A DNA stretch of 64,000 bases from Patescibacteria group bacterium. Lineage in GTDB: Bacteria; Patescibacteriota; Saccharimonadia; Saccharimonadales; VXPC01. The notes under the pieces are model-generated. The model did no database searches and was not told the DNA's origin. It saw nothing but the letters and a program-made list of their open reading frames with translations. The DNA lies in assembly GCA_039028495.1 (NCBI GenBank), contig JBCCHY010000001.1:3528-67527 (forward strand). The letters run 5' to 3'. Shown here one piece after another: positions 7,547 to 40,069 of this stretch (the first letter of the stretch is position 1; each line of letters opens with the position of its first letter). A program made the translations under genes and the position numbers.

Positions 7547-7593
7547 AGCTTTACCTAATATATATTAGCATTTTATTGACAGAAAGTCAATGT

Positions 7594-22261: not shown

Positions 22262-22870
22262 TTAACTATACCATATTCTCTGGTTTTCAGCTGGTCTGGT
22301 CATATAGGTTGTTTCGGATTCTGCGCTCGGAGTTTCAGTAATCCGCTCTACCATGTAGGCAACTATCGGGGCTGCAAAGGTCGCTATGACTGCTCCGACT
22401 AGTGCATATATTATCGTTTGGCGAGCACTCGACGTCTTGGCCGGATCACCGTCGGACAGAACGTATCTGATGCCGCCAACCACAATCATGATTACGGATA
22501 TGATTCCCGTTGCGACTGCAATTAATCCTGCGATGCGGCCAACTAGTGTCGGTGCGTCGCCATCGACGGTTATGACTTCTCCTAGAGCAAACCTGGTGAT
22601 CGCAAATCCAAATATCGCTACTGCCATACCGACACCGGCATAGATGATGCCGTTCTTTGCCTGAGACGTCTTGCCCGGATCGCCACCTGATAGGGCGTAG
22701 CGCATACCCTGCAGTGTGATCATCAGCACACTGAGCGCACCCAGCACGCTAAACGCCAGAGTCAGGACATCGCTCACCGTTTCCTGTGCACTACCTGTGC
22801 TGATCTGGGGGAGAGAGTCAGGTCTCTCCAGAACAATTTGTGCAAAACCAGCGATCATATCTAGAACCAT
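22262..22870 (-). CDS. T4SS pilin-like protein with two tandem pilin modules, paralog 3
   Basis: 202 aa; two copies of the hydrophobic-helix / GGDPxKT / hydrophobic-helix module (LQGMRYALSGGDPGKTSQAKNGIIYAGVG... and VGGIRYVLSDGDPAKTSSARQTIIYALVG...). Confidence 0.6.
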   Translation of the reverse strand: MVLDMIAGFAQIVLERPDSLPQISTGSAQETVSDVLTLAFSVLGALSVLMITLQGMRYALSGGDPGKTSQAKNGIIYAGVGMAVAIFGFAITRFALGEVITVDGDAPTLVGRIAGLIAVATGIISVIMIVVGGIRYVLSDGDPAKTSSARQTIIYALVGAVIATFAAPIVAYMVERITETPSAESETTYMTRPAENQRIWYS

Positions 22871-23427
22871 AGGAACCCCGCGCTACCGTCTACAAGCGTT
22901 GTATGTACCCATTCCAATATTAGTCGTACAGAGCCAGCAATAACCGCTCCGACGATGCCATTGATGATAGTCTGACGAGCATCGTTTGTCTTGTCCGGCG
23001 ACCCATCACTAGCGACGTATTTGAACCCACCAACTATAGTGAAGCCTACAGCGACAATACCTGCGAGCGATACGATCGCGATCAGAACATTGTTGGCAAT
23101 TATCAGGATGGGGTTTTGATCTGCATCACCACTCAGCACGTCACCTGTATCCAGATCATCGCAGTTAGACAGGCCACGATCCCAGGTAGGTATACCGAGT
23201 ATGCTACGGTTCTCGGCATCGCCTTCACATCCACTAGCGCTTACACCCGGTTCAGGCGTAGAGTCCTGCGCATATACACTCGGTGTACTCGCTAAATGTA
23301 GTGCAGGAACAACCAGAGAGAGGAGTGCCACGAGTACAATGAGCTTACGTTTTATCATGCGAAAACTCCTCCGGGTATTAGATAGTTCAGAAATGCGTAG
23401 AGGCCTAGGAATGCCACGTAGGCCCAA
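22861..23427 (-). CDS. T4SS pilin-like protein, paralog 4 (probable true start at ATG 23358)
   Basis: 188 aa ORF; likely start MIKRKLIVLV whose ATG overlaps the upstream gene's TGA (ATGA coupling); C-terminal module IVGGFKYVASDGSPDKTNDARQTIINGIVGAVIAG. Confidence 0.6.
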   Translation of the reverse strand: MGLRGIPRPLRISELSNTRRSFRMIKRKLIVLVALLSLVVPALHLASTPSVYAQDSTPEPGVSASGCEGDAENRSILGIPTWDRGLSNCDDLDTGDVLSGDADQNPILIIANNVLIAIVSLAGIVAVGFTIVGGFKYVASDGSPDKTNDARQTIINGIVGAVIAGSVRLILEWVHTTLVDGSAGFLWF

Positions 23428-24053
23428 ATAGCATTGTATATACGATTCTTGGCTGACTGAACTCTCTGGGGGTTACCGTTGCTAGCAGAGTACTGAATAC
23501 CCCCTACTGCAGCCACGGCAACAACAATCAATGTCGTCAGCAGTGCCATGACGTTCAGTATGCCGTTGATCAGATTAAACAATTCACAATTACTGTGGGA
23601 TGTACACGTACTACTTCCTCCGCTTGATGAGGTGCTACCACCTAGTGCAGCTGGTGTACCCGCGTCAATAGCTCCCGATGGGCATTCACCTGTCGTATAT
23701 AGCTCTAGTCGACCAGTGCCGTTATCACAAAACGCCCCGTCAGAGCCTGTGACCGCTGTGGCTGGACCACCATCATTGATCGCTGGACAGCCAGATGCGT
23801 CTTCTGTGTAATAGACTCCGCGGTTTGAGCCCGATAGAACAGCCTCTTCAAACACACACAGTGCACCACCACTGGTTGTAGGTTGTTGTCCATCTGGACA
23901 ATCGTCACCGGCACCGTATTCAAAAACACGCCCAATATCGTCATAACAGGTCAGTGCGGCAACATTTTGTACATTTGGCTGAACCATGACAAAGAGAGCT
24001 CCGGCGAGCACCGGGACAATTAGCAGTTTTAGATTTTTTAGTTTTGCAATCAT
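23355..24053 (-). CDS. T4SS pilin-like protein, paralog 5, with Cys-rich extracellular region
   Basis: 232 aa; signal peptide, ~12 Cys in the variable region, C-terminal module VVAVAAVGGIQYSASNGNPQRVQSAKNRIYNAIWAYVAFLGL. Confidence 0.6.
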   Translation of the reverse strand: MIAKLKNLKLLIVPVLAGALFVMVQPNVQNVAALTCYDDIGRVFEYGAGDDCPDGQQPTTSGGALCVFEEAVLSGSNRGVYYTEDASGCPAINDGGPATAVTGSDGAFCDNGTGRLELYTTGECPSGAIDAGTPAALGGSTSSSGGSSTCTSHSNCELFNLINGILNVMALLTTLIVVAVAAVGGIQYSASNGNPQRVQSAKNRIYNAIWAYVAFLGLYAFLNYLIPGGVFA

Positions 24054-24151: not shown

Positions 24152-25852
24152 GTGATGAGAGCTAAAATAAAACAATTTCTTGGTCAGGGGTTGGTGCTAC
24201 TTGTGGCATTGTTTGCGATTAGTTCGCTACAAACTGCAAATGTCCACGCCGACCATGTTACTAACGGTAGTGACTTCCCGGGAACCGTTACAGCTGAAAT
24301 CATCGGCATAGATACCGTCCAGATTACTATCGATCGCGACCCTCAGGCTAATGGTCGAGATGACCCACCGCTTACATTTACGCTCTTTAACGATAGAGGT
24401 CTCCACAACCCAGACAATAAACCAACCGCAAAATTCGAAGCAGGTGACCAAGAAGGCATTCCAGAATACCAATGTGGTGACGATGCATGGAGCTCAAAAT
24501 TAGTCATAAATGACTATCCATACATTGGCGATCAGCCGACAAGCTTCACCGCTAACCTAGGATTCCACTATCCGGTAACCGTAGGAGACTGCTCGATAGA
24601 GTTCAGAGTCAGCGGACTAGCTGTCTCTAATGCACTCTCGGGCGACACCGGTGTCTCTCCAGGGGCTGAAAACTATATATTCGATGGTGGAGAAGTAAGA
24701 TCAGCTGATGGTCAATTCTGCTATCGTCAAGATCCACTGCTTGATTCACGGGTGCAGGCGGGGGCATATGTTCAGTATGAATGCGGCTCAGGTCCTGTCA
24801 GATATCGACCAGAGTGCCCCGACTTCTTTTTATTTGGTGGATCAGAAGCTCAGCTTGAAAACACCTCACCACTGACCTTTGATCTCATCCAAAGGTTTGA
24901 GGAGAGAACAGGCGCTGATAGATGTAGATCCGCAGCAAACGCTGTCAGAACCGCAGTATCAGTAGTCAATAACGCCGCCTTACCCGAAGACAGCCAGGTC
25001 ACCACAGGACCTAACTCACCAGGATCAGGTGAGGGGGTTCAGGACTGTGAGACTACTGGCTATGACGAGTCTAGACTCTCCTGGATCATTTGTAGCGCCC
25101 TAGAGCTTGCGGACAGGGCTCTAACCTGGATCGATGGACAGATCGCCGACCAGCTGCGCATAAATGTTGATGAGCTACGAAACGAAGATAGCTACCGTAA
25201 GGCCTGGGGTGCTATGCGTAACCTGGCAACGGTATTCATTATCATTACCGCGTTCGTGATGGTTATCTCTACCGCATTAGACGTCAATGTATTCAGTAAC
25301 TACACGGTTAAAAAATACTTGCCTAGACTGGTGCTGGGCACAATATTCATCCAGCTCTCGTGGGTTCTGGGCCTACTCACGATAGAGGCCGCTGGGTTCC
25401 TGGCAGATGGTATAGAGTTCCTGTTATTCACCGCGTTTAACGGTGACGGGGTTGTGCAGAATCTCAATCTAACCACTCTGTTTGAACACTATATACAAAG
25501 AGAGGGATTGACTACAGCGGCGACAGGCGTTGGATTTGCAGGACTCATCGCCGCAGGTGCTCTACTGAGTCTGGGCGGGTTCTTTGCGATTTTGGCACTC
25601 GCCTGGTCAGCGGCCGGGTTCCTATTTTTCGCCTGGATATTCCTCATCATCAGACAGCTACTAATATTCACACTGATCATCATGGCGCCGCTGGGTATAT
25701 CACTATGGATCCTGCCGGGCAGCGATAGGGCCTGGGGACTATACCGCAAACTGTTCTTTATACTGCTATATATCGAAATAACCATGGTCTCTATATCGGC
25801 AATTGGTAAAATAATGGCCTGGATAACAATCGGCGCACCGGGGAGCCTCTAG
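24152..25852 (+). CDS. VirB6/TrbL-like polytopic membrane protein of the T4SS-like locus
   Basis: 566 aa; signal peptide and ~330-aa extracellular domain, then at least 6 TM helices (ATVFIIITAFVMVIS... FAWIFLIIRQLLIFTLIIMAPLGISLWIL) in VirB6-like topology; divergent from the pilin array. Confidence 0.55.
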   Translation: MMRAKIKQFLGQGLVLLVALFAISSLQTANVHADHVTNGSDFPGTVTAEIIGIDTVQITIDRDPQANGRDDPPLTFTLFNDRGLHNPDNKPTAKFEAGDQEGIPEYQCGDDAWSSKLVINDYPYIGDQPTSFTANLGFHYPVTVGDCSIEFRVSGLAVSNALSGDTGVSPGAENYIFDGGEVRSADGQFCYRQDPLLDSRVQAGAYVQYECGSGPVRYRPECPDFFLFGGSEAQLENTSPLTFDLIQRFEERTGADRCRSAANAVRTAVSVVNNAALPEDSQVTTGPNSPGSGEGVQDCETTGYDESRLSWIICSALELADRALTWIDGQIADQLRINVDELRNEDSYRKAWGAMRNLATVFIIITAFVMVISTALDVNVFSNYTVKKYLPRLVLGTIFIQLSWVLGLLTIEAAGFLADGIEFLLFTAFNGDGVVQNLNLTTLFEHYIQREGLTTAATGVGFAGLIAAGALLSLGGFFAILALAWSAAGFLFFAWIFLIIRQLLIFTLIIMAPLGISLWILPGSDRAWGLYRKLFFILLYIEITMVSISAIGKIMAWITIGAPGSL

Positions 25853-26998
25853 ATGCTACAAGAAGAAGTTGAACTACTGATCGCATTTGTCCTACTGGCA
25901 GGGTCAGTCTTCGGGGCTGTATTTTTGGCTACTCGCGCCGTAGCTGGTGTCCTGGGCATATTCGGTATACAAAACGACCCAACCAAAGGTATCCTCGACC
26001 GCGGCAAAAACTTCCTCAACAAAAAAGGAGAAGCACGCAAGCAAAGAAATGCTGAACAAAAACAGCTTGATGCCGCGAGCCGTCTTGCCAGAGACGCCCG
26101 TACTGGTGGGGCAAAAGGCGTAGGTAGAAGAGCAGTCAGAAGAGCGACCGGAGGAACGCTCAGAGATCGAGCTCGTACAGGAACCTTGGGGGTTGCTCCT
26201 GTGGGTACTTCTGCGAGGGCAAGAAAAAGAAAGAGGGCAGATACATTGGTGCAGGGTAATGAAGCGGACCTTGCAAGAAAGATTCAACAGGCGAGAGTTC
26301 TTGAGTCAGAAGACAAATACTTCAATACAGACGTCGACTCTATTGATGCATCACAGAAAGCGGCCGTCGAGAAAGCGGCTATTGATAATGCGACCGCATT
26401 AATAACTAGACAGACCTCACAAATGGGTTTTGTAGATAAAATGAACCACCTTCAAGAGCTCTCCTTAGACGAATCGGCAAGCAGTGAACAAAGAAGAGCT
26501 GCGATAACCATGATCACCAAAAACAAACAATATGGTAGGCTTGCTAGCATACAGGGGGAACTGGCAGACAGGGGTTCTGGTGGTGCAGAGTTATGGCGTA
26601 AAGCGCTCGGTGATAACTATAGTGATTTTAAAGAACTAGGCGCAGGATTAACGGTTGATCTATCCGACGGAAACGATAGAGTCAACAGAAAGACCGGTGA
26701 AGTCACCATAACCGGATCAAAGAACTCTTCACGAGTTGCAGCAGATCGGCTTGTTGAGATGGCCAAGCTTGATGATAAAACGCTTTCACTACAAGATGCG
26801 GGCGCACTACGAGAGTTTATGTCTGTACCCGTAATTGTGACTGATCCAGCAACCGGTGCGACAGTGAATACTGGCGACAGAGGTGCCGCAATAGCAGGTG
26901 ATCATACCTTACCAGTAGGTGCGCCAGGAAGAAGCGGTAGCGAAAAACTTCAGAGTGAAATGGCTCCAGAAAATATCGACATTCTACGCAGAACATAA
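25853..26998 (+). CDS. Hypothetical membrane-anchored protein (T4SS-locus associated)
   Basis: 381 aa; ATG immediately follows the stop of the VirB6-like gene; N-terminal TM then basic/charged region. Confidence 0.45.
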   Translation: MLQEEVELLIAFVLLAGSVFGAVFLATRAVAGVLGIFGIQNDPTKGILDRGKNFLNKKGEARKQRNAEQKQLDAASRLARDARTGGAKGVGRRAVRRATGGTLRDRARTGTLGVAPVGTSARARKRKRADTLVQGNEADLARKIQQARVLESEDKYFNTDVDSIDASQKAAVEKAAIDNATALITRQTSQMGFVDKMNHLQELSLDESASSEQRRAAITMITKNKQYGRLASIQGELADRGSGGAELWRKALGDNYSDFKELGAGLTVDLSDGNDRVNRKTGEVTITGSKNSSRVAADRLVEMAKLDDKTLSLQDAGALREFMSVPVIVTDPATGATVNTGDRGAAIAGDHTLPVGAPGRSGSEKLQSEMAPENIDILRRT

Positions 26999-27994: not shown

Positions 27995-28990
27995 TTGTAC
28001 TTGCACCTACTCGAATCACCACTGGAGAAAAGTCTGACTACTGTTATAATAATGCTCATGGCAACCTATAAAGTTCTGCAGGACATAGAGGCAGAAGACA
28101 AGCTGATCGGGCCGCTGACGTTCAAGCAGCTGGTGTTTGGATTCATTGCTGCCGGGATCATGTTTCTCGGCTGGTTTGTAGCACGCAGTAGCAGCATATT
28201 CATATTCATTCCATTCTTCATCCTGGCCAGCCCATTTTTATTTCTGGCGGCACCCATAGGGCAGGACCAGCCTAATGATGTCTGGCTAGGCGCTCGGCTA
28301 CGATTTTTTTTCAAACCGCGCGTACGTAAGTGGGACCAGACAGGGCAAAGCGAATACGTCACCGTAACTGCCCCAAAGCGTGAAGAGCACGTATACACAG
28401 ATGGATTGGAGCAGACAGAGGTAGAAAGCCGCCTAAAGCTACTCGCCAACACACTAGACAGCCGCGGCTGGGCGGTTAAAAATAGCAACGTAAACCTAGA
28501 AAAGGTGACCAGCGCTAGCACCATGAGCGATGGGGCGCGACTCGTCCATCCGGGCGACCTGCCGCAAGAGGTGCAGCAAGTGGACATACATGCTAGTGAC
28601 GATATGTTTGATGGTACCGCTCGTATTGGCCAGAACGTTGACCAGCTCATGAGTGAACGGCAGGAGCAGGCCCGTATATCAGCCGTACGCCAGATGCAGA
28701 CAACGCCGACTAGCGGACAAGTTCTAGAGGCAGAGTTCCTCGACCAGCTCCACAAACAGCAGGACCGTCTAGGCATACATCATGGTGACGAAGTAGCTGA
28801 AGCCAGAGACGTCGGTCACTCAGCAGTAGCGGCAGAACGAAAAATACCGGAGATACCAAAAGCCCCAGATACTAACCAACAGCTGGGGGCGGTAAATGAC
28901 CTGAAAGTATCGACGCTCGCTAGTCTGGCGAAAAACAAAAAATCCGGTGACGATACACTTACCGACGATACGGTGATAGAATTACACTAA
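27995..28990 (+). CDS. PrgI/VirB3-like membrane protein with long C-terminal extension (start possibly at 28055 or 28061)
   Basis: N-terminus MATYKVLQDIEAEDKLIGPLTFKQLVFGFIAAGIMFLGWF plus a second TM helix resembles PrgI-family (VirB3-like) proteins that precede VirB4 in Gram-positive-type T4SS. Confidence 0.5.
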   Translation: MYLHLLESPLEKSLTTVIIMLMATYKVLQDIEAEDKLIGPLTFKQLVFGFIAAGIMFLGWFVARSSSIFIFIPFFILASPFLFLAAPIGQDQPNDVWLGARLRFFFKPRVRKWDQTGQSEYVTVTAPKREEHVYTDGLEQTEVESRLKLLANTLDSRGWAVKNSNVNLEKVTSASTMSDGARLVHPGDLPQEVQQVDIHASDDMFDGTARIGQNVDQLMSERQEQARISAVRQMQTTPTSGQVLEAEFLDQLHKQQDRLGIHHGDEVAEARDVGHSAVAAERKIPEIPKAPDTNQQLGAVNDLKVSTLASLAKNKKSGDDTLTDDTVIELH

Positions 28991-29003: not shown

Positions 29004-29870
29004 ATGAATCCAAATAACCAAGCACCAGGACAACCAGGACAGGCGGCCGCTCAAGCCCCGGTCAATCCTACCCTGGCTCCAGTCAACCCTGGAGCAATCA
29101 CTGGAGGCCCACAGCCTGGTCAGCCAAAACCTGCGGTATCCGTAAACCCCAATAGCACCCAAAACACCCTGCAGGTAGCAGAGGTCCGTGACGGTATCGT
29201 CATCATGGCCGATGGATCATTCCGGGCCGTTGTCATGTGTAAAGCCATCAACTTTGACCTCATGAGCCCTCAGGAAAAAGAGGGTGTAGAGTACGCCTAT
29301 CAGGGATTTCTAAATTCCCTCTACTTTGACATCCAGATATCTGTCAAATCTCGCCGCGTAGACGTCAAACCATATCTAGAGAAACTGACCAAAATCCGCC
29401 GCGAACAGGACAATATGCTGCTCGGTCTACTCATGGAGGACTACATATATTTCCTCGAGGATCTCACGCAGCAGACTAATATCATGGACAAAATGTTCTA
29501 TGTCACGATCCCATACTATGACACTAGCCTATCTGCCGCCAACATCTCTCGCAGTACCAAAAATATCTTTGCCAACATATTCTCATTCAATAAAACTCCG
29601 GACAAAGTAACAATAGACGAAAATGCTCTGGAGCAGGCTAAAACAGAGCTCCGTAACCGCGTCCAGGCAATCATGCAGGGATTACAGGCCTGTGGGGTCC
29701 AGAGCCTACCACTTGATACAGAGGAGCTGATCGAGCTCTACTACGATAGCTATAACCCAGATACTGCAACTAGGCAAAAGCTCAAAAACTTCGGTGGACT
29801 GTCTCAGGATGTTATTGGCAAGGGTGACGGTGTTGCCAGTACGGATCACTTGAATCGGAGTGTCCAGTAA
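29004..29870 (+). CDS. VirB4-like ATPase, N-terminal domain encoded as a separate ORF (Pro/Gln-rich leader plus TcpF/PrgJ-type N-domain)
   Basis: 288 aa; IVIMADGSFRAVVMCKAINFDLMSPQEKEGVEYAYQGFLNSLYFDIQISVKSRRVD matches the N-terminal domain of Gram-positive-type VirB4; stop TAA overlaps next ATG (TAATG). Confidence 0.5.
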   Translation: MNPNNQAPGQPGQAAAQAPVNPTLAPVNPGAITGGPQPGQPKPAVSVNPNSTQNTLQVAEVRDGIVIMADGSFRAVVMCKAINFDLMSPQEKEGVEYAYQGFLNSLYFDIQISVKSRRVDVKPYLEKLTKIRREQDNMLLGLLMEDYIYFLEDLTQQTNIMDKMFYVTIPYYDTSLSAANISRSTKNIFANIFSFNKTPDKVTIDENALEQAKTELRNRVQAIMQGLQACGVQSLPLDTEELIELYYDSYNPDTATRQKLKNFGGLSQDVIGKGDGVASTDHLNRSVQ

Positions 29871-31801
29871 TGTTCGGTAAAAAGAAACAGCAGGTAGACC
29901 CCGTTACTCTGGCTCAGCAGCAGCGCATGCAGGAACAAGTAGAGGTCCAGCACGCCTTTCAAAAAGGCGTCACAGCACTACGTGACTTTATCGCCCCCAG
30001 TAGCATCATGTTCGAAGGCGGCTACTTCCAGCTCGGTACGCGCTATGCCCGCACATACTATGTGTATGGTTACCCGCGCAAGGTATATACCGGCTGGTTA
30101 AGCGGTCTCATAAACATCGATGAAGTCATGGACATGTCGATGTTTATCTACACTGCCGACAGCCAAGTCGTACTAGAAAACCTACGTAAAAAGGTTGGTC
30201 AGCTAGAGGCGGGTATAAGCCTCGACAATGAAAAGGGCCGCGTCCGTGACCCGGCCAAACAAGCAGCGATCCTGGACGCTGAAGAAATGCGAGACAAACT
30301 ACAGGTGGGTGAAGAGCGCTTCTTCCGCTTTGGACTGTACTTCACAATCTACGGCAATAGTTTTGATGAGCTAGAGTTCATTAGCCACAAGGTAGAAACA
30401 ATGCTCGGTAACCAACTGGTATACAGTAAACCAGCCAGCGCCCAGCAAGAACAAGGCCTCAATAGCACCATCCCGCAATTTGTCGACCAGCTACAAATTA
30501 GGCGCAATATGAACACGGGTGCTATCAGTACTTCATTCCCATTCACTAGTGCCGACCTGACACAGGAGAGCGGCATTCTCTACGGTGTAAACATGCACAA
30601 TTCTGGGCTAGTCATTTTTGACCGCTTCGGTTTAGAGAACAGCAACAGCGTGGTTTTCGCGAAATCTGGTGCAGGTAAAAGCTTTACCGTCAAACTCGAA
30701 GCCCTCCGCCAGCTAATGCTTGGCACAGAGATCGTCATTATCGACCCAGAGAATGAATACCAGCGCATGTGTGAAGCAGTCGGCGGATCCTATCTGAAAC
30801 TCAGTCTCAATAGCCCAACCAGAGTCAATCCTTTTGACCTACCAAGAGTAGTTGATGCCGAAGACGGTGAGAACGCCCTGCGGTCTAACCTGATTACACT
30901 ACATGGGCTGCTGCGTCTTATGATGGGTGGGGCACAGGCCCAGCTAGCGGCAGGTGGGGCAGCTACCATGCCGGTGCTCACCCCGAGTGAAGAGGCAGAC
31001 CTAGATGCAGCCCTCATTACTACCTACGAAAAGGCCGGTATCACCAACGACCCGCTAACCCATGGTAGCCCTCCGCCGACCATAGCTGATCTCTACGATA
31101 CTCTGCTGCACATGGGCGGCTCTGGGCCTCAGCTTGCACAGCGACTGCGTAAATATACCAGCGGCACATTCGCCGGTATATTCAGCCAGCAGAGCAACAT
31201 TGATATGGATAATCCGCTTGTCTGCTTTAACGTGCGGGACCTAGAGGACGAGCTACGACCAGTGGCTATGTATATCGTGCTTAACTACATCTGGAACAAG
31301 ACCAAGGCTGACCAGAAGCGCCGTATCCTGGTCGTTGACGAGGCCTGGCAGCTAATGAAATATGAAGACTCTGCTAATTTCCTTTTCAGCCTGGCAAAAC
31401 GAGCCCGTAAGTATAATCTAGGTATCACGACGATCACTCAGGATGTAGAGGACTTCATGGCATCTCGCATGGGTAGGGCAATCGTCGCCAATGCGAGCAT
31501 GCAGATACTGCTCAAACAGTCTCCAAGTGCTGTCGACGTTCTCGCAGATGTCTTCAAGCTAACGAGCGAGGAAAAGAAACGTCTTAGTCAGTTCCCTGTC
31601 GGGCAAGGGCTCTTTTTCGCCGGTCAAAACCATGTCCATATACAAATTCTACCGAGCGCAACCGAGCAGGAGCTCATCACAACTAATCCGGATCAGATCG
31701 CTGCTCTGCAGCAGGCCCAGGAGCAGCCTCAGCAAACAACAAATCTAAACGACAGCCTCATGCCTGGTGTCGGTGATAGCTCCGAAATCCAGCTCCACTA
31801 A
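29870..31801 (+). CDS. virB4: VirB4-like T4SS ATPase (central and C-terminal ATPase domains)
   Basis: 643 aa; Walker A FAKSGAGKSFTVK, Walker B ILVVDEAWQLM, VirB4-type middle region (GYFQLGTRYARTYYVYGYP...GWLSGL). Confidence 0.8.
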   Translation: MFGKKKQQVDPVTLAQQQRMQEQVEVQHAFQKGVTALRDFIAPSSIMFEGGYFQLGTRYARTYYVYGYPRKVYTGWLSGLINIDEVMDMSMFIYTADSQVVLENLRKKVGQLEAGISLDNEKGRVRDPAKQAAILDAEEMRDKLQVGEERFFRFGLYFTIYGNSFDELEFISHKVETMLGNQLVYSKPASAQQEQGLNSTIPQFVDQLQIRRNMNTGAISTSFPFTSADLTQESGILYGVNMHNSGLVIFDRFGLENSNSVVFAKSGAGKSFTVKLEALRQLMLGTEIVIIDPENEYQRMCEAVGGSYLKLSLNSPTRVNPFDLPRVVDAEDGENALRSNLITLHGLLRLMMGGAQAQLAAGGAATMPVLTPSEEADLDAALITTYEKAGITNDPLTHGSPPPTIADLYDTLLHMGGSGPQLAQRLRKYTSGTFAGIFSQQSNIDMDNPLVCFNVRDLEDELRPVAMYIVLNYIWNKTKADQKRRILVVDEAWQLMKYEDSANFLFSLAKRARKYNLGITTITQDVEDFMASRMGRAIVANASMQILLKQSPSAVDVLADVFKLTSEEKKRLSQFPVGQGLFFAGQNHVHIQILPSATEQELITTNPDQIAALQQAQEQPQQTTNLNDSLMPGVGDSSEIQLH

Positions 31802-31855: not shown

Positions 31856-34675
31856 ATGGGAATTTTCAGAGGTGACAACCAGGACGACGGCTACGAGCCT
31901 GACGCTCTTGCTCCCGATGCAGCAGAAACACCCGACAATACTCACCACACTGCTGAAGCCGAACAGGCTCAACTGGCAAACATACTGGCTGAAAACGGCG
32001 TGTATGATGCCGAGGATCAAGGGAGTTTTTATACGGGCCCCATTGCTGAGGCAGAGGATGAGGCTGCGGCAAGCACAGAGGAAACATCTAATGATGACCT
32101 AGAGAGCGGTCGCCTGGGTAGTTTTTACCAGGCAGCGGCCGCACGGACCTCTCCATCAAAGGGCAAAATATTCGGTGCACTGGGGTTGTTTGTTGCCCCT
32201 TATCTATTCCTGCTGCCATTACTATTCACACCCGGATTCGACCTAGAGCATATCAACCGCCTGACGACGGCTTTTAGGTTTGGGCATTTCCACACACAAC
32301 TCGGCAAACGAGTAAACCATCTAGCTAATTTCCAGATAGCCTACACTGCAGGGGGCGCCGACTATATAGAGGGTAGAAATATACCAAACTACGAGAGAAC
32401 CACCATGTTTCAGCGCATGGTTGGATCGGATGCAAAATCTGTCTGGGATAAATACGGAGACAGATTTACTCCTGTCTATGAACGCAGGGCAACGACCCTC
32501 GGACTTAGACGTCTAACGTCAATTACGGACGAAGTCACTGGCATAACCTATAGCACTAGACGAACCCCTGATCTGAGAGCGCTCGAGCAGCTCACTGCTA
32601 GCCTGGACCCAACCGATGCCCAAGTCGGAGTGCTCAGAACTAGGCCTGAGATATCCCTGTTTGCCCGAAATAACGGCGTGCCGTTCAGTAGGTTCGCACT
32701 TATAGTTAGCAAACTGAGAGAAAACCATCCTGACGTTGATACCAGACAAAAGGTGCGTGCAGAAGCAACTAAAGAAAGGCGCAATGCTACAAAACCAAGA
32801 GCAACCACCTTTCAAACCTTGGCGGGAGCTGGTCAGGAAGAGCTGAGCGATGGCTTCGTAGAGCAAATTGAATCGGGTGAATCACCTGGCAGAGCTCGCC
32901 AATGGCTCGCCGACAATCTCGAGTTTAATAAAAAGGTGCTCCTAAATACTGGTAGGCTCAGTGTAGCTGTTGGATTGGGTACAATTGCCTGCGTCTTCAG
33001 GGATGCTGCTGACACTATAGAGCAGGGTATCGTGGATAGAACACGAGGGCTCATGGTTCAGGCATCAGACACAGAGACAAATGTGTCTCAAAACAGACTT
33101 GGCTTAAACCCCGCCGAGATTGCAGCAGTGCTATCTAGCGATTTTGACGGACATGTACGCTCTGCAGCCTGGGCAGCATCAATGAAGGGCGTTCCTGTTG
33201 AAGAGACCGATCCAGATTTTAATTTTAGTAATCTATTCAACTTTAAAAATTATCTGGGAATATCAGTACGTACAGTCCTAGAGTTTGATAGGGCTATAGA
33301 CTTTGCTATCGACAACATACCTTCAAACCCTGCTGAGGTGTTAACAGACATTGGCGAAGCTATTCCTGTAGTGGGTAGTCCTTTTGGACTAATTGATAAT
33401 TCTTTTGATAGTCTCAAAAGAAGAGCTGCTGATGAAGGTTGCAAACATATCCTCAACCCGGGAGTGCAGATCGGCCTCACCGTAGTAGAACTCGTAGGTA
33501 CTGTAATTCTGACCTTCTTTACTGGACCGCTTGCAGGAACCGCTAAAGGAGGAGCTGGTGCGGTGATATCGCAGATTGCTAGATCAGTTGCCACCACCAG
33601 AGCAGCTGTTTCGTTAGGAGCGAGCATAGGGGCAGATTGGCTAATATATAACTGGATAATCCCGCGAGCGATAGAACAAAGTACAGGCATAAGCACCACC
33701 TACCTACCAGGTGAGGGCGCCAGGAATGTTGAAATACTGCTAGAAGGAAGTCGGCTCAATGCTGAGTCTGTTTCTCTCACGAGCGGGGGCACCATTACGA
33801 GCTCTGAGGTAGCGCTGGCGGCAAGCTTTGACCATATGCACAAATATCGAGAGTCTTTCACAGACCGCGGACTAGCCAGTAACCTCTTTGACCTAGACAA
33901 TCCATATTCAGGCGCCTCTAGTCTCGCCTCTAGCATACCTAGTAGTGTAAAAGACGGCGGTCAAAGCGTAGCTAGTCTGGCTTCATCAGTTTTTAGCGGA
34001 AGTGCGCTTATGAGCATATTTGGCGGTTCAGCATCAGCGCAGACCCAGAATAGAGACTTTAGAAACAACGGCCAGGCCTATATAGATCTCCTCTACGCAG
34101 GCAGTAGCTTTGGTGTTGGTTTTAACGAGCAGGAAATGACAGGCGAGGACCTAGACTTTGACCATGTAATAAACAGTGACTACGTCGAAGCAGATCTGCC
34201 GATACTGCTGGAGGAGTACGGCAAGTGTATAACCGTAAATTATCATGATCTAGTCCTCGTGGAGAGTGGCGTCATTAGGGATGATGAGCGTAAAAAAGAG
34301 TTAGGATATCCAGAAGAGTGCTACGATCGTGATGCACGTAGACTGCTGATCTACTGGTCCGACTGCAACACTGCCGTTAGCCTGCGCGAGGTAAGTCAGC
34401 TGCGCAGTGCCTTTTACTCGACCGAGTGTGCTCAGGATCTCGCGCCAGAGCTGCTGACCGCTGCACCGGTGAACGAGGAAGACTATCGCTATAATACTGC
34501 TCCCTACAGACTGCTGGCTGCCGCGCAGGACAAAGAGGCAAAGGAGCGGACCTTTACACAAAAAATCGGGGCTGAGCTGCGCGAGCTTCACCAAACAAGC
34601 CTTGACATGCGCGGGGACGTTTATGCAGCTACAGACGAGCCAGCCATCGCCTCGAGAAGGAGCACACTACTATGA
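31856..34675 (+). CDS. Large hypothetical membrane protein of the T4SS-like locus
   Basis: 939 aa; acidic N-terminus, TM hairpin near residue 100 (IFGALGLFVAPYLFLLPLLF), second hydrophobic block near residue 540-600; no catalytic motif. Confidence 0.5.
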   Translation: MGIFRGDNQDDGYEPDALAPDAAETPDNTHHTAEAEQAQLANILAENGVYDAEDQGSFYTGPIAEAEDEAAASTEETSNDDLESGRLGSFYQAAAARTSPSKGKIFGALGLFVAPYLFLLPLLFTPGFDLEHINRLTTAFRFGHFHTQLGKRVNHLANFQIAYTAGGADYIEGRNIPNYERTTMFQRMVGSDAKSVWDKYGDRFTPVYERRATTLGLRRLTSITDEVTGITYSTRRTPDLRALEQLTASLDPTDAQVGVLRTRPEISLFARNNGVPFSRFALIVSKLRENHPDVDTRQKVRAEATKERRNATKPRATTFQTLAGAGQEELSDGFVEQIESGESPGRARQWLADNLEFNKKVLLNTGRLSVAVGLGTIACVFRDAADTIEQGIVDRTRGLMVQASDTETNVSQNRLGLNPAEIAAVLSSDFDGHVRSAAWAASMKGVPVEETDPDFNFSNLFNFKNYLGISVRTVLEFDRAIDFAIDNIPSNPAEVLTDIGEAIPVVGSPFGLIDNSFDSLKRRAADEGCKHILNPGVQIGLTVVELVGTVILTFFTGPLAGTAKGGAGAVISQIARSVATTRAAVSLGASIGADWLIYNWIIPRAIEQSTGISTTYLPGEGARNVEILLEGSRLNAESVSLTSGGTITSSEVALAASFDHMHKYRESFTDRGLASNLFDLDNPYSGASSLASSIPSSVKDGGQSVASLASSVFSGSALMSIFGGSASAQTQNRDFRNNGQAYIDLLYAGSSFGVGFNEQEMTGEDLDFDHVINSDYVEADLPILLEEYGKCITVNYHDLVLVESGVIRDDERKKELGYPEECYDRDARRLLIYWSDCNTAVSLREVSQLRSAFYSTECAQDLAPELLTAAPVNEEDYRYNTAPYRLLAAAQDKEAKERTFTQKIGAELRELHQTSLDMRGDVYAATDEPAIASRRSTLL

Positions 34676-35961
34676 GCCTGATTACGAAAATTACCGAGAA
34701 GCTATGGGGGATGACTGCTACACTGCTAGTACTCTCGGTCATTCTGGCGCCGACCACGTCCGCACAGTCTACCTTCAACGAAGGGGCCGCTCACCTGTAC
34801 CCTTGGTTTGACTATCGTGACGACGGCTCTTTCCTCGCGAACTATTCGCCCGATAACTGTAGCGTAGCTTCAAATCTCGTCGGTGGCGACCATCAAGAAA
34901 AGGCCTTTAACTTCTTTATCGGCGAAGGGCGTGGACTCTCTGCACCCCAATCAGCCGGCATAGTCGGAAACTTAATGGTCGAGTCCTACGACGAGATCAA
35001 TCCAACTGCAGAGTATCCCGGAAGCGCCAGACCCTACGGCATAGCCCAGTGGACAGACAACGGTGGCAGAAGAGATAGAATGCTAACGTGGGTAAACTCA
35101 GCCCTAAAGGACCGAGGAATTGACACCGGAGACGATCCATATACATATTTCAGTGAAGCCAGTGCTCCGTCCAGTGATGAGTTAGAAATCTATTTTGAAG
35201 TGCAGCTAGAGTTCATTTGGTACGAAATGACCCAGGGCGACGAAACGCTAGCACTCACCGAACTACAAAAGACAAACTCTGCTATTGAAGCGGCAACAGC
35301 CTTTGAGAAGTACTACGAAAGGGCTAATGGTCAGAAGCTGGAAGATCGTATAGCTAACGCAGTCGGTATTCTAAATAAATATGGCTCTAACTACGGTGGA
35401 GATGTCAGCTCTGATAGCCGCATATGTGGACAGGCAGGTAGTGGTGAAATTGTTGGTGACTGGAGCTTACCACTGAGAAGAGCGCTGTTTGATCAGAATC
35501 AGTACTGGTTCAACAAACCCCACCATAACAAGAACGAAGCCGTAGACCTAGAGGCGTCTCCCGGTGAAGAGGTCTACTCTATGACTTCTGGAACGATTAT
35601 AAACGCAGGTACTGGTACAACGGATCTATGTGGCCTGGGTGTAGTCGTTCAGTCACCAGACGGGACTCAGTTTATCTACTGCCACGGTCTCGATGGTGGC
35701 TCCGTTGATGGGGCCCGCATTAATGATACCGTAAAGGCCGGTCAGCTAATCATGCATAACGGATCCACCGGAAACTACCCGCTGGACCATCCAGACCCAG
35801 ATCTGAGAGGTAAACCTTCCTCGTCAGGGCCTCATCTACATCTTGCGATTCAGACCCCTGATGGCGCCAGAAGATGCCCACAAAAACTGCTTGAATCAAT
35901 TTACAACAAGGCTCCGATCAGCCCCGAGTCGCTTGCCACGTCAGGATGTACCAAAGGATGA
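34672..35961 (+). CDS. Secreted peptidoglycan hydrolase: lysozyme-like (phage-tail-lysozyme type) domain plus M23 peptidase domain
   Basis: 429 aa; signal peptide; SAGIVGNLMVESYDEINP...YGIAQWTDNGGRRDRML (lysozyme-like); C-terminal HHNKNEAVDL ... GSTGNYPLD...GPHLHLAIQ (M23 HxxxD / HxH). Confidence 0.7.
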   Translation: MSLITKITEKLWGMTATLLVLSVILAPTTSAQSTFNEGAAHLYPWFDYRDDGSFLANYSPDNCSVASNLVGGDHQEKAFNFFIGEGRGLSAPQSAGIVGNLMVESYDEINPTAEYPGSARPYGIAQWTDNGGRRDRMLTWVNSALKDRGIDTGDDPYTYFSEASAPSSDELEIYFEVQLEFIWYEMTQGDETLALTELQKTNSAIEAATAFEKYYERANGQKLEDRIANAVGILNKYGSNYGGDVSSDSRICGQAGSGEIVGDWSLPLRRALFDQNQYWFNKPHHNKNEAVDLEASPGEEVYSMTSGTIINAGTGTTDLCGLGVVVQSPDGTQFIYCHGLDGGSVDGARINDTVKAGQLIMHNGSTGNYPLDHPDPDLRGKPSSSGPHLHLAIQTPDGARRCPQKLLESIYNKAPISPESLATSGCTKG

Positions 35962-37457
35962 TACACCTGCTAATCAGACTGAGATTCGTTATCCTAGGGC
36001 TTATCCTAGCGGGTATAGGCTTATTGATCACCAGTAGAATCAGCTTTATAAGCCTAGAGCTACCCAGTCCACAAGAGATCGAAACCACGGTCAGCCTGAC
36101 AGACAAGGGTAGCTTGAAGAATAGCCAAATCACTATACCTAGCGGATCAACAACAGCTCGAAGGCTAGTTTTCGGTAACAACTATCAACTCAGGCTGAGG
36201 TCCGGTGACCGTGCCTCTATAGAAGCTGTAGACACCAGGGGTTTTTTCCGAACGAGCTCCGTAACAGCCGATCTACGACAGAAGCCTTCTGTCGAGTTCA
36301 TCGCTAACAACCCGGGGCCCTGTTCATTTACCGAGTCAGGTGTCGTTTATAGCTACACCTGCGGCGGTAGTCTAGATACTATGAGTGTGCATATCCCCCC
36401 AGATGGTCAGCAGCCAGGATATGTCTCCGGTTACACCGGCTCAAATCCGTCCCTAGCAATCATTGATACAGCCACACTAAATGGTAAAACTATCCTGCAT
36501 CTAGAGTCGACCGACGGCGCCAAATACCTGGCAGAATTCGATTCAGGGAACGTTGCCGAGATCGCTGTAATCAACAACCTCAGTCAGCCTGAATACAGGC
36601 TGCTCGAACGGTCCAACGACATAGTTTTGTATTCTAGCAATCTAAGGCAGGTTTTGGTTTTTAATGATATTGGGTCGACCCCTAATCTACTCGCTATTCC
36701 CGAACCTAGCAATAAGACACTAGTCGGTCATGAGCTGAGACACTTGAACGATAGGCTGTTGGCAGTATACTCAGATGCCTTCAAAGATCAGGCTATTGGT
36801 GACTCTGATGTGAATAGCGGAGAGCTAGGGGACAATAGAGGAGAATCTGAGCTAATAGTGTTCGGCGGTGGCGAAGAAATCAGGCTCCCTCTGGATCAAA
36901 CAAGGGTAGACGTCGGTTTCTGTTCTGGCAGTCTTATTTGTGTACATACAGGTGGACAGCTAGATGTCTACAGGCTTAGTAACAATTCGATACAAAAAGC
37001 TACCGACTACACAGGTGTCGAAGATATGGCCTATACAGCCTCAGGCGGATACATACTATTCGCCCAGCAAATCGCACTCCTCGATGAAGATAGCGCTTCG
37101 GTACATGAAGTTATCTCGAACAGTGCTGGATTTTGTGGGATACATCAAAATGACTCAGTACTGAGTGTATGCACAACTGTACGCGGCAGAAAACACCTGG
37201 TGAGACTGGTAGAGTCTAGCAGCTACGATAGGATCATTGAAGCGTATCAAACACTTAGCATTAGTCCCGATATTGACAGCCTAAGCATCCATAAAAACAC
37301 AATTCACATATCTCCGATCAGAGCAAAAACAGTTCAAGACCCTGGCTCTCGTTTTTCTGGACAAGACCCAGTTGAGCGAGCAGAGATACGCTCTAGGGTT
37401 GAGGCTGCCATCCAGAACGCTGGCATACCGTCTGACTATGAGGTCTATATACTCTAG
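35946..37457 (+). CDS. Hypothetical N-terminally anchored extracytoplasmic protein (T4SS-locus associated)
   Basis: 503 aa; single N-terminal TM (FVILGLILAGIGLLI); overlaps previous gene by 16 nt. Confidence 0.45.
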   Translation: MYQRMIHLLIRLRFVILGLILAGIGLLITSRISFISLELPSPQEIETTVSLTDKGSLKNSQITIPSGSTTARRLVFGNNYQLRLRSGDRASIEAVDTRGFFRTSSVTADLRQKPSVEFIANNPGPCSFTESGVVYSYTCGGSLDTMSVHIPPDGQQPGYVSGYTGSNPSLAIIDTATLNGKTILHLESTDGAKYLAEFDSGNVAEIAVINNLSQPEYRLLERSNDIVLYSSNLRQVLVFNDIGSTPNLLAIPEPSNKTLVGHELRHLNDRLLAVYSDAFKDQAIGDSDVNSGELGDNRGESELIVFGGGEEIRLPLDQTRVDVGFCSGSLICVHTGGQLDVYRLSNNSIQKATDYTGVEDMAYTASGGYILFAQQIALLDEDSASVHEVISNSAGFCGIHQNDSVLSVCTTVRGRKHLVRLVESSSYDRIIEAYQTLSISPDIDSLSIHKNTIHISPIRAKTVQDPGSRFSGQDPVERAEIRSRVEAAIQNAGIPSDYEVYIL

Positions 37458-37525: not shown

Positions 37526-38491
37526 ATGTGGGAAGCATTAGTAGTAAAACCAATCGTCAATGTCCTAATAGCGATCTATGCGCTGATTCCTGGGCATAGT
37601 TTTGGGCTGGCTATAATTCTGTTCACCATTCTGGCCAGAGTCCTGCTTTATCCAATCGTAAAGAGGCAGCTCCACCACAGTAAAGCCCTACGAGAACTCC
37701 AGCCAGAGATTCAGGAGATCAAGAAAAAACACAAAGATGACCGTACTGCCCAAATGATGGCCATCAGCGCTCTGTACAAGCAACGAGAAGTCAGACCAGC
37801 AGCCGGTATAGGCTTCGCGCTGCTGCAGATACCCATTTTTCTTGCCCTCTATCAGGGAATAAACCGCATCATGAATGAGCCGCAAGAGATCATCGACACG
37901 TCATATCAATTCGTGCGTGATCTGCCCTGGATGCAGGATCTATCTGCAAACATTGCGCTGTTTGACACTGACTTTTTCGGTATTTTGGACCTGGGTCGTA
38001 GACCGTTTGATGACAGTACGCTCTATATTCCCGGCCTGATACTAGTATTTCTGACGGCCTATGTGCAGTTTATTTCTAGCAAGCAGATGCTCGCCAGCCA
38101 GGGCGAACGCAAGTCACTACGACAAATATTCAAAGACCAGGCAGATGGTAAAGAAGTAGACCAAGCAGAGGTCAGTGCAGCTACAGCAGGTGCCATGCCT
38201 TACATGATTCCCGGCATCATACTGCTCGTGTCCCTCGGGTTCGTGGCCGCACTACCGCTCTACTGGCTAACGAGCGGGGTTATCGGCTACTACCAGCAGC
38301 GTAGAGTTCTAAATATGGACGTCGACGAAGCTCTCGCTATTTCGGAGGAGAAGCAAAACAAACCAAAAAAGCTCAACGCCAAAGAGAAAAAGGCCGTAGG
38401 CTCAAGTGAACAAGAGGCGGCCAACAAAAAACCCAAAAAAATGAACGCCAAACAAAAACGCGAAGCCATGCGTAAGAAAGCAAAGAAATAG
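37526..38491 (+). CDS. yidC: Membrane protein insertase YidC (short Oxa1-like form) with Lys-rich C-tail
   Basis: 321 aa; YidC/Oxa1 core helices (LAIILFTILARVLLYPI...QMMAISALYKQREVRP...LLQIPIFLALY), C-terminal KKPKKLNAKEKK tail. Confidence 0.8.
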   Translation: MWEALVVKPIVNVLIAIYALIPGHSFGLAIILFTILARVLLYPIVKRQLHHSKALRELQPEIQEIKKKHKDDRTAQMMAISALYKQREVRPAAGIGFALLQIPIFLALYQGINRIMNEPQEIIDTSYQFVRDLPWMQDLSANIALFDTDFFGILDLGRRPFDDSTLYIPGLILVFLTAYVQFISSKQMLASQGERKSLRQIFKDQADGKEVDQAEVSAATAGAMPYMIPGIILLVSLGFVAALPLYWLTSGVIGYYQQRRVLNMDVDEALAISEEKQNKPKKLNAKEKKAVGSSEQEAANKKPKKMNAKQKREAMRKKAKK

Positions 38492-39016: not shown

Positions 39017-40069
39017 ATGAAGATTCATTCAGTGAGAATGCAAAATGTGCGGGGGCACAATGATCTCAGCCTCGAGTTTGTTGATGGGGTTAATGTGCTG
39101 GTAGGTCCAAATGCCTGCGGTAAAACAACAGTGCTTGAGTCGCTGTCTATGGGTTGCACCGGCAAAAGCCCGGGTACTAAGCCGTCCGAAATGCTGCAAA
39201 ACGATGCCAGCTGGATGCGGATCGATATTTCTACAGACACTGATGCACGTATCGTCCGCTACCAGCCAGAAAAAAGCCAGACTAGAACAATAGAGATAGA
39301 CGGCAAACAACAGACCAGACTAAAGCACTCCCACATAGCGCCCATTGTCTGGTTTGACCCTGAGCAGCTACGCCTGCTACGCGGATCGCCTGCAAGAAGA
39401 CGAGAATACATGGACTACGTATTGTCCCAGCTGGACCCAAACTACAGTACACACCTGTCGCGTTACAGCAGGGCCCTGCGTCAACGTAACGCACTGCTCA
39501 AATCTGCCAACCCTACCAGAGATGCGCTCTTTGTCTGGAATGTGCGCCTCAGTGAGCATGGTGACTATATTCACAGCTCCAGGAAAAAACTAGTTGAAGA
39601 CATCACCGGTAGTATCGAGCAGAAATATCTCGACCTCTCGGGTACTACAAAAAGTATCTCGCCCATGTACCAGGCGCTGGAGGCAAAAGGCAGCTACTCA
39701 GAAAACCTCCTTAAGAGTCTCGAGAGCAGCTATGACCGAGATCGAGCCATCGGCCATACTACAGCAGGCCCGCACAGAGACGATCTATTATTCGGGGACG
39801 ATTCTGGTCAGGCACTCGGTCTGTCGGCATCTAGGGGCGAAGTCCGCACATTGGTTCTGGCTCTTAAGCTACTCGAGGTGGAGCTACTAGAGAGTGCCTT
39901 CAGTAGCAGTCCCTTACTGCTATTTGACGATGTATTCTCAGAGCTAGACGGTGCCCGCAGACAAGCATTCGTATCCGCACTATCCCATCTACAAACCATC
40001 ATAACTACTACAGATGCAGACATAGTGACCAAAGATTTCGCACGTAAAGCCAATATCCTCGCCATCTAG
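39017..40069 (+). CDS. recF: DNA replication and repair protein RecF
   Basis: 350 aa; Walker A GPNACGKTT, signature/Walker B LLLFDDVFSELD. Confidence 0.85.
   Translation: MKIHSVRMQNVRGHNDLSLEFVDGVNVLVGPNACGKTTVLESLSMGCTGKSPGTKPSEMLQNDASWMRIDISTDTDARIVRYQPEKSQTRTIEIDGKQQTRLKHSHIAPIVWFDPEQLRLLRGSPARRREYMDYVLSQLDPNYSTHLSRYSRALRQRNALLKSANPTRDALFVWNVRLSEHGDYIHSSRKKLVEDITGSIEQKYLDLSGTTKSISPMYQALEAKGSYSENLLKSLESSYDRDRAIGHTTAGPHRDDLLFGDDSGQALGLSASRGEVRTLVLALKLLEVELLESAFSSSPLLLFDDVFSELDGARRQAFVSALSHLQTIITTTDADIVTKDFARKANILAI

Follow-up and report, generated by a model that had tools for sequence, protein, structure and literature searches.

Organization of the split virB4 locus

The gene for VirB4, the motor ATPase of type IV secretion systems (T4SSs), is represented in the Patescibacteria group bacterium considered here by two consecutive open reading frames (ORFs), further designated as ORF1 and ORF2. 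They lie on contig JBCCHY010000001.1 of assembly GCA_039028495.1 (lineage Saccharimonadia), within the 64,000 nucleotides (nt) hereafter called the window, i.e., the whole stretch of DNA that was analysed (contig positions 3,528 to 67,527). A preliminary description, made from the letters of the DNA, proposed that they are translationally coupled parts of a genuinely split VirB4, with a sequencing error or a gene recently broken by nonsense or frameshift mutation as the other options. The features of the locus are as follows (aa, amino acids; pLDDT, predicted local distance difference test).

29004-29870, plus strand: ORF1, 288 aa
29004-29144, plus strand: leader of ORF1, rich in Pro, Ala, Gln and Gly by composition, predicted to be disordered, its sequence varying among relatives
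29145-29828, plus strand: folded core of ORF1 (residues ~48-275), pLDDT 80-94 in the AlphaFold2 model
29857-29860, plus strand: GGAG, a Shine-Dalgarno-like motif for ORF2, 9 nt from its ATG and within the final codons of ORF1
29868-29872, plus strand: TAATG, stop/start overlap of 1 nt (ORF1 stop 29868-29870, ORF2 ATG 29870-29872)
29870-31801, plus strand: ORF2, 643 aa
30659-30682, plus strand: Walker A motif AKSGAGKS (ORF2 residues 264-271)
31325-31342, plus strand: Walker B motif ILVVDE (ORF2 residues 486-491)

Direct reading of the DNA gives cagTAATGttc at the junction (wider stretch: cggagtgtccagTAATGttcggt), with one base common to the stop codon of ORF1 and the initiation codon of ORF2, the latter lying in the -1 frame relatively to the former. 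Thus the coordinates, the 1-nt overlap and the GGAG at a distance of 9 nt are exactly those reported initially, and the same is true for the Walker motifs of ORF2 and the low-complexity leader of ORF1, the first 47 residues of which include 11 Pro, 8 Ala, 6 Gln and 6 Gly. Promoter and terminator scans gave no promoter-like or terminator-like sites at the junction; the count of promoter-like sites was at the level of shuffled sequences, while terminator-like ones amounted to 19 versus 12.3 (standard deviation 3.3), i.e., about two standard deviations higher.

Two products tile on one VirB4

The larger product was assigned using NF045971, the NCBIfam model of VirB4-like ATPases of the CD1110 family encompassing 752 positions. 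Residues 21-591 of ORF2 match its positions 172-734 with 353.7 bits (E 2e-105), which is above the curated cut-off of 325 bits, Pfam domains P-loop_TraG, AAA_10 and DUF87 are recognized in the same protein, and residues 228-604 align with the crystal structure of the VirB4 C-terminal domain from Thermoanaerobacter (4AG5, E 6e-51). These data demonstrate that ORF2 is VirB4 without its first ~170 model positions, that is, the rest of the N-terminal domain together with the RecA-type ATPase domain. The N-terminal subdomain (approximately positions 1-170 of NF045971) is not on this polypeptide, and positions 2-130 are matched instead by residues 53-180 of the separately encoded ORF1 (E 5e-8). Since ORF2 is devoid of the piece supplied by ORF1, it cannot be regarded as a complete VirB4 accompanied by an extra paralogous N-domain. 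Among thousands of ORF2 homologues, the 120 best, which were listed, are stand-alone proteins of 630-653 aa with 81-87% identity, including proteins named as Saccharibacteria/Saccharimonadales.

The smaller product is demonstrated to be a TrsD-like protein (“TraC-like”, PF26593) that shares homology with single-chain VirB4 over the first ~130-190 residues of the latter. Its AlphaFold2 model, built from an alignment of 70 sequences, has a well-defined core preceded by the leader predicted to be disordered (pLDDT <50 at residues 1-41 and 43-55); in the family consensus the leader is reduced to scattered prolines. Comparison of this model with known structures by Foldseek returned R388 TrwK/VirB4 as all of the top 14 matches in PDB (probability 0.99-1.00, E 6e-4 to 1e-2, ~190 aligned columns), the next PDB matches having a probability of 0.16 or lower. 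VirB4 was found among PDB chains by fold comparison alone, searches with the sequence of ORF1 and with the profile of its family giving chance matches only. Likewise, hmmscan of ORF1 against Pfam yielded nothing at E<=0.01 and, at E<=10, only the sub-threshold TraC_F_IV (E 0.03). PF26593 did not appear even at E<=10, the copy of Pfam-A used probably being without that model, and it is the precomputed annotation that places PF26593.2 (TraC-like) on P0001, a protein 100% identical to ORF1, and on all 120 listed homologues (here and below, P and L numbers are our labels for proteins and loci). More than 7,600 significant homologues of ORF1 were found; the 120 listed are stand-alone proteins of 260-354 aa, 54-78% identical to it and derived mostly from metagenome-assembled genomes of Saccharibacteria/Saccharimonadales. 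For both halves the conserved length and identity of the 120 listed homologues imply strong purifying selection. Three further homologues of ORF1 (P0255, P0258 and P0261) are longer, 420-480 aa, and their conserved domain begins at residue 140-200, being preceded by N-terminal extensions of up to ~200 aa.

Alignment of both ORFs to full-length VirB4, suggested initially as a check, therefore gives complementary segments of one model, 2-130 and 172-734. The domain content and order of the two products, if concatenated, are the same as in single-chain VirB4 proteins (TrwK of R388, the CD1110-family model, the TraC family protein of pBbsI and the fused protein P0361 described below); unlike these, the window encodes two polypeptides, and the break falls in the interdomain linker. 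The preliminary description also equated the combined length, about 930 aa, with that of a normal VirB4: the sum is 931 aa, which is near the natural fused forms of Patescibacteria (860-910 aa) and somewhat exceeds the 752-894 positions of the full-length VirB4 models used.

Conservation of the split and of its junction

Relatives of ORF1 were scanned for in one genome per GTDB species, and at least 555 species-representative genomes carry one. From 80 loci fetched, one belonged to a contig ending before ORF2, leaving 79 assessable, and in 75 of these the start of ORF2 was placed by script. An in-frame stop codon follows the ORF1 homologue in 79 of 79 cases, and all 75 analysed junctions are split. 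The idea of a recent nonsense or frameshift mutation that has broken a single-chain virB4 and left a pseudogene in the making has in its favour the different frames of the two ORFs, abutting exactly as a 1-nt indel could give, and the existence of single-chain relatives; but the stop codon recurs in loci from different species, the listed homologues of both halves keep their length, ORF2 has a conserved N-terminus and a Shine-Dalgarno motif of its own, and the nearest fused proteins are just 35% (ORF1 part) and 49% (ORF2 part) identical, so that this scenario retains next to no credibility. An error of sequencing or assembly, creating a false stop or a change of frame, might be suspected for a source that is a metagenome-assembled genome; identical ORF boundaries nevertheless occur in assemblies made independently, in many projects and with many technologies, and an identical pair of proteins (P0001/P0121) is on record. 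With the listed stand-alone homologues keeping their length as well, the comparative data make an error at the junction very unlikely, and neither of the two alternatives to a genuine split put forward initially holds.

The mode of junction is less uniform than the split itself. Among the 75 junctions placed, 41 have the identical 1-nt overlap (TAATG, TAGTG or TGATG), 12 have a gap of 1-4 nt, and two overlap by 8-14 nt, while about a quarter (20) contain a spacer of 13-211 nt; four of the long spacers, read directly, are real and carry stops in all frames. Tight junctions, from -1 to +4 nt, thus account for 53 of 75 relatives, and 46 of these 53 have GGAG, GAGG or AGGA located 4-18 nt before the start of ORF2. 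In most relatives ORF1 terminates as R-E-L-Q* encoded by cGGGAGct.ca.TAA, whereas in the window (29852-29870) the end is R-S-V-Q* (cGGAGtgtccagTAA) with a similar distance from GGAG to ATG. That the GGAG is kept despite the different terminal peptide hints that the Shine-Dalgarno motif, besides the peptide, is under selection. In the 131-nt spacer of one relative (L091), separating its TraC-like gene from virB4, a 43-aa ORF was called at 3362-3493.

Coupled translation of ORF1 and ORF2, asserted in the preliminary description, is consequently plausible for the window and for most relatives, and it stops short of a conserved requirement, being dispensable in the 20 of 75 relatives with 13-211-nt spacers. 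Another reading of the same junction would be a programmed -1 frameshift or stop bypass producing a single fused VirB4 polypeptide, as the position of ORF2 in the -1 frame and its overlap with the stop codon of ORF1 might invite to assume. The final 90 nt of ORF1, however, contain no slippery heptamer of the X XXY YYZ type; going upstream from its ATG, the frame of ORF2 is closed by TGA after 14 codons; and spacers of variable length in many relatives, with stops in all frames in the four inspected, argue that no recoding signal is conserved. We consider this mechanism highly improbable.

Natural fusions and direction of the change

Comparison with orthologues, likewise proposed initially, revealed that all 79 assessable loci are split and that fused genes do exist in a clade resembling Berkelbacteria. 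The exhaustive HMMER search with ORF1 covered 1.84 billion representatives (50% clustering), and 149 of its best 150 representatives are stand-alone proteins, the single long one being P0361 (898 aa). Residues 13-228 of the latter align with residues 51-271 of ORF1 (35% identity, E 2e-43) and residues 310-887 with residues 16-608 of ORF2 (49% identity), the two halves being connected by a Pro/Ala-rich linker and assigned to PF26593 (TraC-like) and to DUF87, AAA_10 and P-loop_TraG. P0361 is on record from at least three independent samples, and a PrgI gene precedes its own. In its structural model the joining segment 219-301, about 80 residues, is disordered (pLDDT <50). As the site at which the window has its break corresponds to this disordered Pro/Ala stretch in the fused sister lineage, both arrangements appear to be viable.

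The search with P0361 retrieved about 65 proteins of 851-910 aa combining PF26593 with the ATPase domains and assigned, where named, mostly to Berkelbacteria or “Patescibacteria group”, and after them a set of 594-770-aa proteins with ~60% identity. Two members of this second, ~600-aa group were checked (L091 and L092) and proved to be truly split, the PF26593 part being a gene of its own upstream, 131 nt away in the first and overlapping by 38 nt in the second. One short protein, P0456 (582 aa, 83% identical to the fused protein), was considered as a very recent split and rejected: its DNA in the complete Berkelbacteria genome CP066695.1 (L089, 3029-5749) is an uninterrupted ORF for a 906-aa fused TraC-like + VirB4 protein, in which the deposited annotation calls only 582 aa, leaving ~950 nt upstream “empty” as the result of a mis-called start codon. 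This mis-call, 582 of 906 aa, may be of interest to T4SS specialists.

The relationship between fused and split forms was followed by neighbour joining, with 38 sequences, 577 alignment columns of the ATPase part and 100 bootstrap replicates; the result is a quick distance tree for a small sample biased to the query. Support of 100 was obtained for monophyly of the fused clade, for the ~600-aa split group as its sister, and for monophyly of Saccharimonadia and of Patescibacteria, and the nearest outgroups are split genes from Firmicute plasmids. Nesting of the fused clade among split ones means, by parsimony, that the ancestor of Patescibacteria would have been split and the Berkelbacteria-like clade secondarily fused; the tree thus suggests one derived fusion inside Patescibacteria. 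The same topology argues that the first subdomain of VirB4 is an autonomous module, which may be attached or detached.

The same break in distant systems

Outside of Patescibacteria, tblastn of ORF1 against 72,556 plasmids gave 60 records in Bacillota, one actinobacterium and haloarchaea. In Pontibacillus, Bacillus thuringiensis Bt407 (BTB_502p) and Haloprofundus halobius, a “hypothetical protein” of 274-349 aa overlaps or abuts a VirB4 of 621-661 aa, and in Bt407 the pair is located downstream of annotated PrgI in a gene layout like that of the window. The Firmicute and haloarchaeal pairs differ from it by residing on plasmids or megaplasmids and by only 24-32% identity to ORF1. In Brevibacillus pBbsI the match is the N-terminus of a single-chain “TraC family protein” of 810 aa.

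A further counterpart is provided by the staphylococcal plasmid pSK41, where TrsC, TrsD (227 aa) and TrsE (672 aa) follow in the same order as PrgI, ORF1 and ORF2. The likeness to pSK41/pGO1, which belong to the pGO1 subclass of MPF-FATA (MPF, mating pair formation), extends over a VirB3-like protein, a protein of ~230-290 aa, a VirB4 of ~650 aa, a membrane protein and a cell-wall hydrolase. TrsE (7-617) and ORF2 (17-593) are collinear and align end to end (E 1e-38), the former beginning at position 183 of NF045971 and the latter at 172. The staphylococcal system differs in that TrsD and TrsE are 14 nt apart rather than overlapping, and in being a conjugative system of plasmids that includes a relaxase and a type IV coupling protein. 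In general, the short ATPases tested (TrsE and those of Pontibacillus and Haloprofundus) begin at positions 172-189 of NF045971. Among their small partners, TrsD matches the TrsD model and the others match N-terminal positions of the VirB4 models; fused proteins match VirB4 models in one stretch. The common starting position of the short ATPases implies that the break occurs at one interdomain site in very distant lineages. Papers on plasmids pELF and pNP40 were considered as sources of TraD/TraE parallels and set aside as irrelevant, TraD being of VirD4 type and TraE of pNP40 apparently single-chain.

Besides being ancient and widespread, the arrangement has been published before, both as TrsD/TraD beside TrsE and as TrsD homologues beside virB4 (PMC12102498). 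Quinonero-Coronel et al. (2025; PMC12102498) describe TrsD homologues as the commonest T4SS component adjoining virB4 in Patescibacteria, 1,664 of the 2,272 homologues found being in this position, and those of Gracilibacteria are reported there as not adjoining virB4. In the same source TrsD is called “remotely homologous” to the VirB4 N-terminus, no function being assigned, and Guglielmini et al. (2014; PMC4027160) is cited for this homology; in the main text of the latter paper TrsD was not found. PMC12102498, citing Wang et al. (2023), also lists a TrsD homologue as essential in S. epibionticum ML1, and Wang et al. (2023; PMC10633639) demonstrated by transposon insertion sequencing (Tn-seq) that the T4SS cluster of this organism (SEML1_0006-0019) is essential for epibiotic growth, a role established for S. 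epibionticum ML1 only. The passages of PMC12102498 devoted to TrsD contain no statement that the partner VirB4 is short at its N-terminus and no mention of fused forms. Given that a TrsD-like gene beside virB4 is published for the T4SS of Patescibacteria, the window is an instance of a known arrangement, and what remains to be added is the exact complementarity of the halves, the derived fusion in one clade of Patescibacteria and the common split point, which covers Patescibacteria, Firmicute plasmids, pSK41 and one haloarchaeal plasmid. For annotation it is relevant that homologues of ORF1 are mostly labelled as “hypothetical protein” and those of ORF2 as “DUF87 domain-containing protein”, and that neither deserves a pseudogene flag.

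A probable single motor from two genes

Taken together, the tiling on NF045971, the alignment with P0361 and the split in all 79 assessable loci speak for the first of the options named in the preliminary description, a genuine split VirB4. We assign a probability of about 0.85 to the reading that ORF1 and ORF2 are separate, anciently established genes giving parts of one VirB4 motor in an MPF-FATA-related T4SS of Saccharibacteria. Their products would reconstitute the VirB4 protomer non-covalently. In published structures of the R388 inner-membrane complex the N-terminal domain of TrwK/VirB4 reportedly contacts VirB3, and by analogy ORF1 might dock the ATPase onto the PrgI/VirB3-like protein encoded upstream, tethering it to the membrane. 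The TAATG overlap and the Shine-Dalgarno motif inside ORF1 probably couple translation of ORF2 to that of ORF1 in this genome, and the overlap may help to keep the two products in matched, equimolar amounts; such coupling is a frequent convenience and not a requirement.

Several observations weigh against this reading. The likeness of ORF1 to staphylococcal TrsD is weak, with 22.1 bits (E 1.1e-4, positions 27-142 of 201) in the TrsD model NF041427, the curated cut-off of which is 200 bits and which gives 227.6 bits for genuine TrsD of pSK41, and with E 0.004 and a probability of 8.6% in hhalign of the ORF1 family versus pSK41 TrsD; being only remotely homologous to TrsD, ORF1 is filed here as “TrsD-like / PF26593 TraC-like” and not as a member of NF041427. 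Its placement on the N-terminal part of TrwK is derived from the coordinates of hidden Markov models and not from Foldseek. The AlphaFold2 model of fused P0361 is poor (pLDDT 61, predicted template modelling score 0.42) and, albeit collinear with full-length TrwK over 910-950 columns (E 1.7e-15), deviates from it by a root-mean-square distance of ~25 A, thus permitting no statement on domain packing. Finally, the long spacers in 20 of 75 relatives show that coupling of the two genes is dispensable.

ORF1 might alternatively be an independent accessory of the T4SS, for instance a regulator or an assembly chaperone, of distant VirB4 ancestry and not complementing ORF2 structurally. Such a role would agree with Gracilibacteria, where TrsD homologues are reported apart from virB4 (PMC12102498), and with the variable Pro-rich leaders and extensions of up to ~200 aa that have no counterpart in P0361, aligned from residue 13. 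ORF2 and each other short ATPase examined, however, are devoid of exactly the region that ORF1 supplies, natural fusions join both parts in the expected order via the disordered linker, and in the ATPase tree the fused clade branches from within split clades, which implies that the two forms are interchangeable. An accessory of this kind is accordingly regarded as unlikely. As for the suggestion that an independent ORF1 unrelated to VirB4 would overturn the split, ORF1 is indeed a conserved independent gene, although homologous to the N-terminal part of VirB4.

If the two genes give one motor, their separation may itself be functional. The free TrsD-like module could control the timing or stoichiometry of docking of the VirB4 hexamer onto PrgI/VirB3 in an essential and apparently non-conjugative T4SS, the leader could add an interaction specific for Patescibacteria, and re-fusion in the Berkelbacteria-like clade would then represent a change in regulation. 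We put this forward as a speculative and rather doubtful extension.

Genomic surroundings

The two genes are embedded in a larger cluster, its components and neighbours being located as follows.

22262-24053, minus strand: three T4SS pilin (VirB2-like) genes, PF18895 with E 2.7e-19, 6e-11 and 2e-5, divergent from the main cluster
24152-25852 and 25853-26998: ORFs of 566 and 381 aa, abutting exactly (25852/25853), no Pfam match
27995-28990, plus strand: PrgI/VirB3-like membrane protein gene, PF12666 (PrgI), E 3.3e-10, residues 26-112
31856-34675, plus strand: 939-aa protein, no Pfam or NCBIfam family, in the place that the “membrane protein” of pSK41 has downstream of TrsE
34672-35961, plus strand: cell-wall hydrolase with phage-tail lysozyme (PF18013, E 1.2e-22) and M23 peptidase (PF01551, E 4.2e-11) domains, in VirB1-like position
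37526-38491: YidC
39017-40069: RecF-like ATPase
45122-46507: dnaA
46794-47888: dnaN

The pilin ORFs are consecutive (202, 188 and 232 aa) and form an array as reported for Saccharimonadia. The PrgI-like ORF ends 13 nt before ORF1 and occupies the position of TrsC in pSK41 and of PrgI in Bt407 and in loci L005 and L092. The TTG listed as its start is doubtful, residues 20 and 22 are encoded by ATG, and translation probably begins at the internal ATG near 28052; a promoter-like site TGGAGA-16-TATAAT with TG is located inside this ORF, at 28023-28050. With up to 331 aa, versus 130-170 aa in L005, L091 and L092, the PrgI-like protein is of unusual length and has a hydrophilic tail of ~200 aa after the PrgI domain. 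Downstream of ORF2, the 939-aa ORF and the hydrolase gene share 4 nt; together with the 566-aa and 381-aa ORFs the former probably encodes T4SS membrane components, candidates for a VirB6-like role.

Cluster ORFs scanned with Pfam gave no match to a relaxase or to a VirD4/TraG coupling protein; within this set, the ORFs at 24152-25852, 25853-26998, 31856-34675 and 35946-37457 had no match at all. Location of dnaA and dnaN ~13 kb downstream of virB4 means that the T4SS adjoins the likely replication origin, and the cluster is a chromosomal, origin-proximal T4SS of Patescibacteria. It shares with the chromosomal T4SSs described for this lineage (PMC12102498, PMC10633639) the order PrgI/TrsD-like/VirB4, the array of VirB2-like pilins and the vicinity of dnaA; with no difference of substance from them, the locus in the window is an ordinary member.

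Two further observations concern other parts of the window. An 805-aa protein with a cutinase domain (PF01083, E 4.9e-16), unusual for an epibiont with a reduced genome, is encoded at 41769-44186 on the minus strand, and two large adjacent ORFs of 999 and 826 aa, essentially without Pfam match, occupy 4547-10074 on the same strand.

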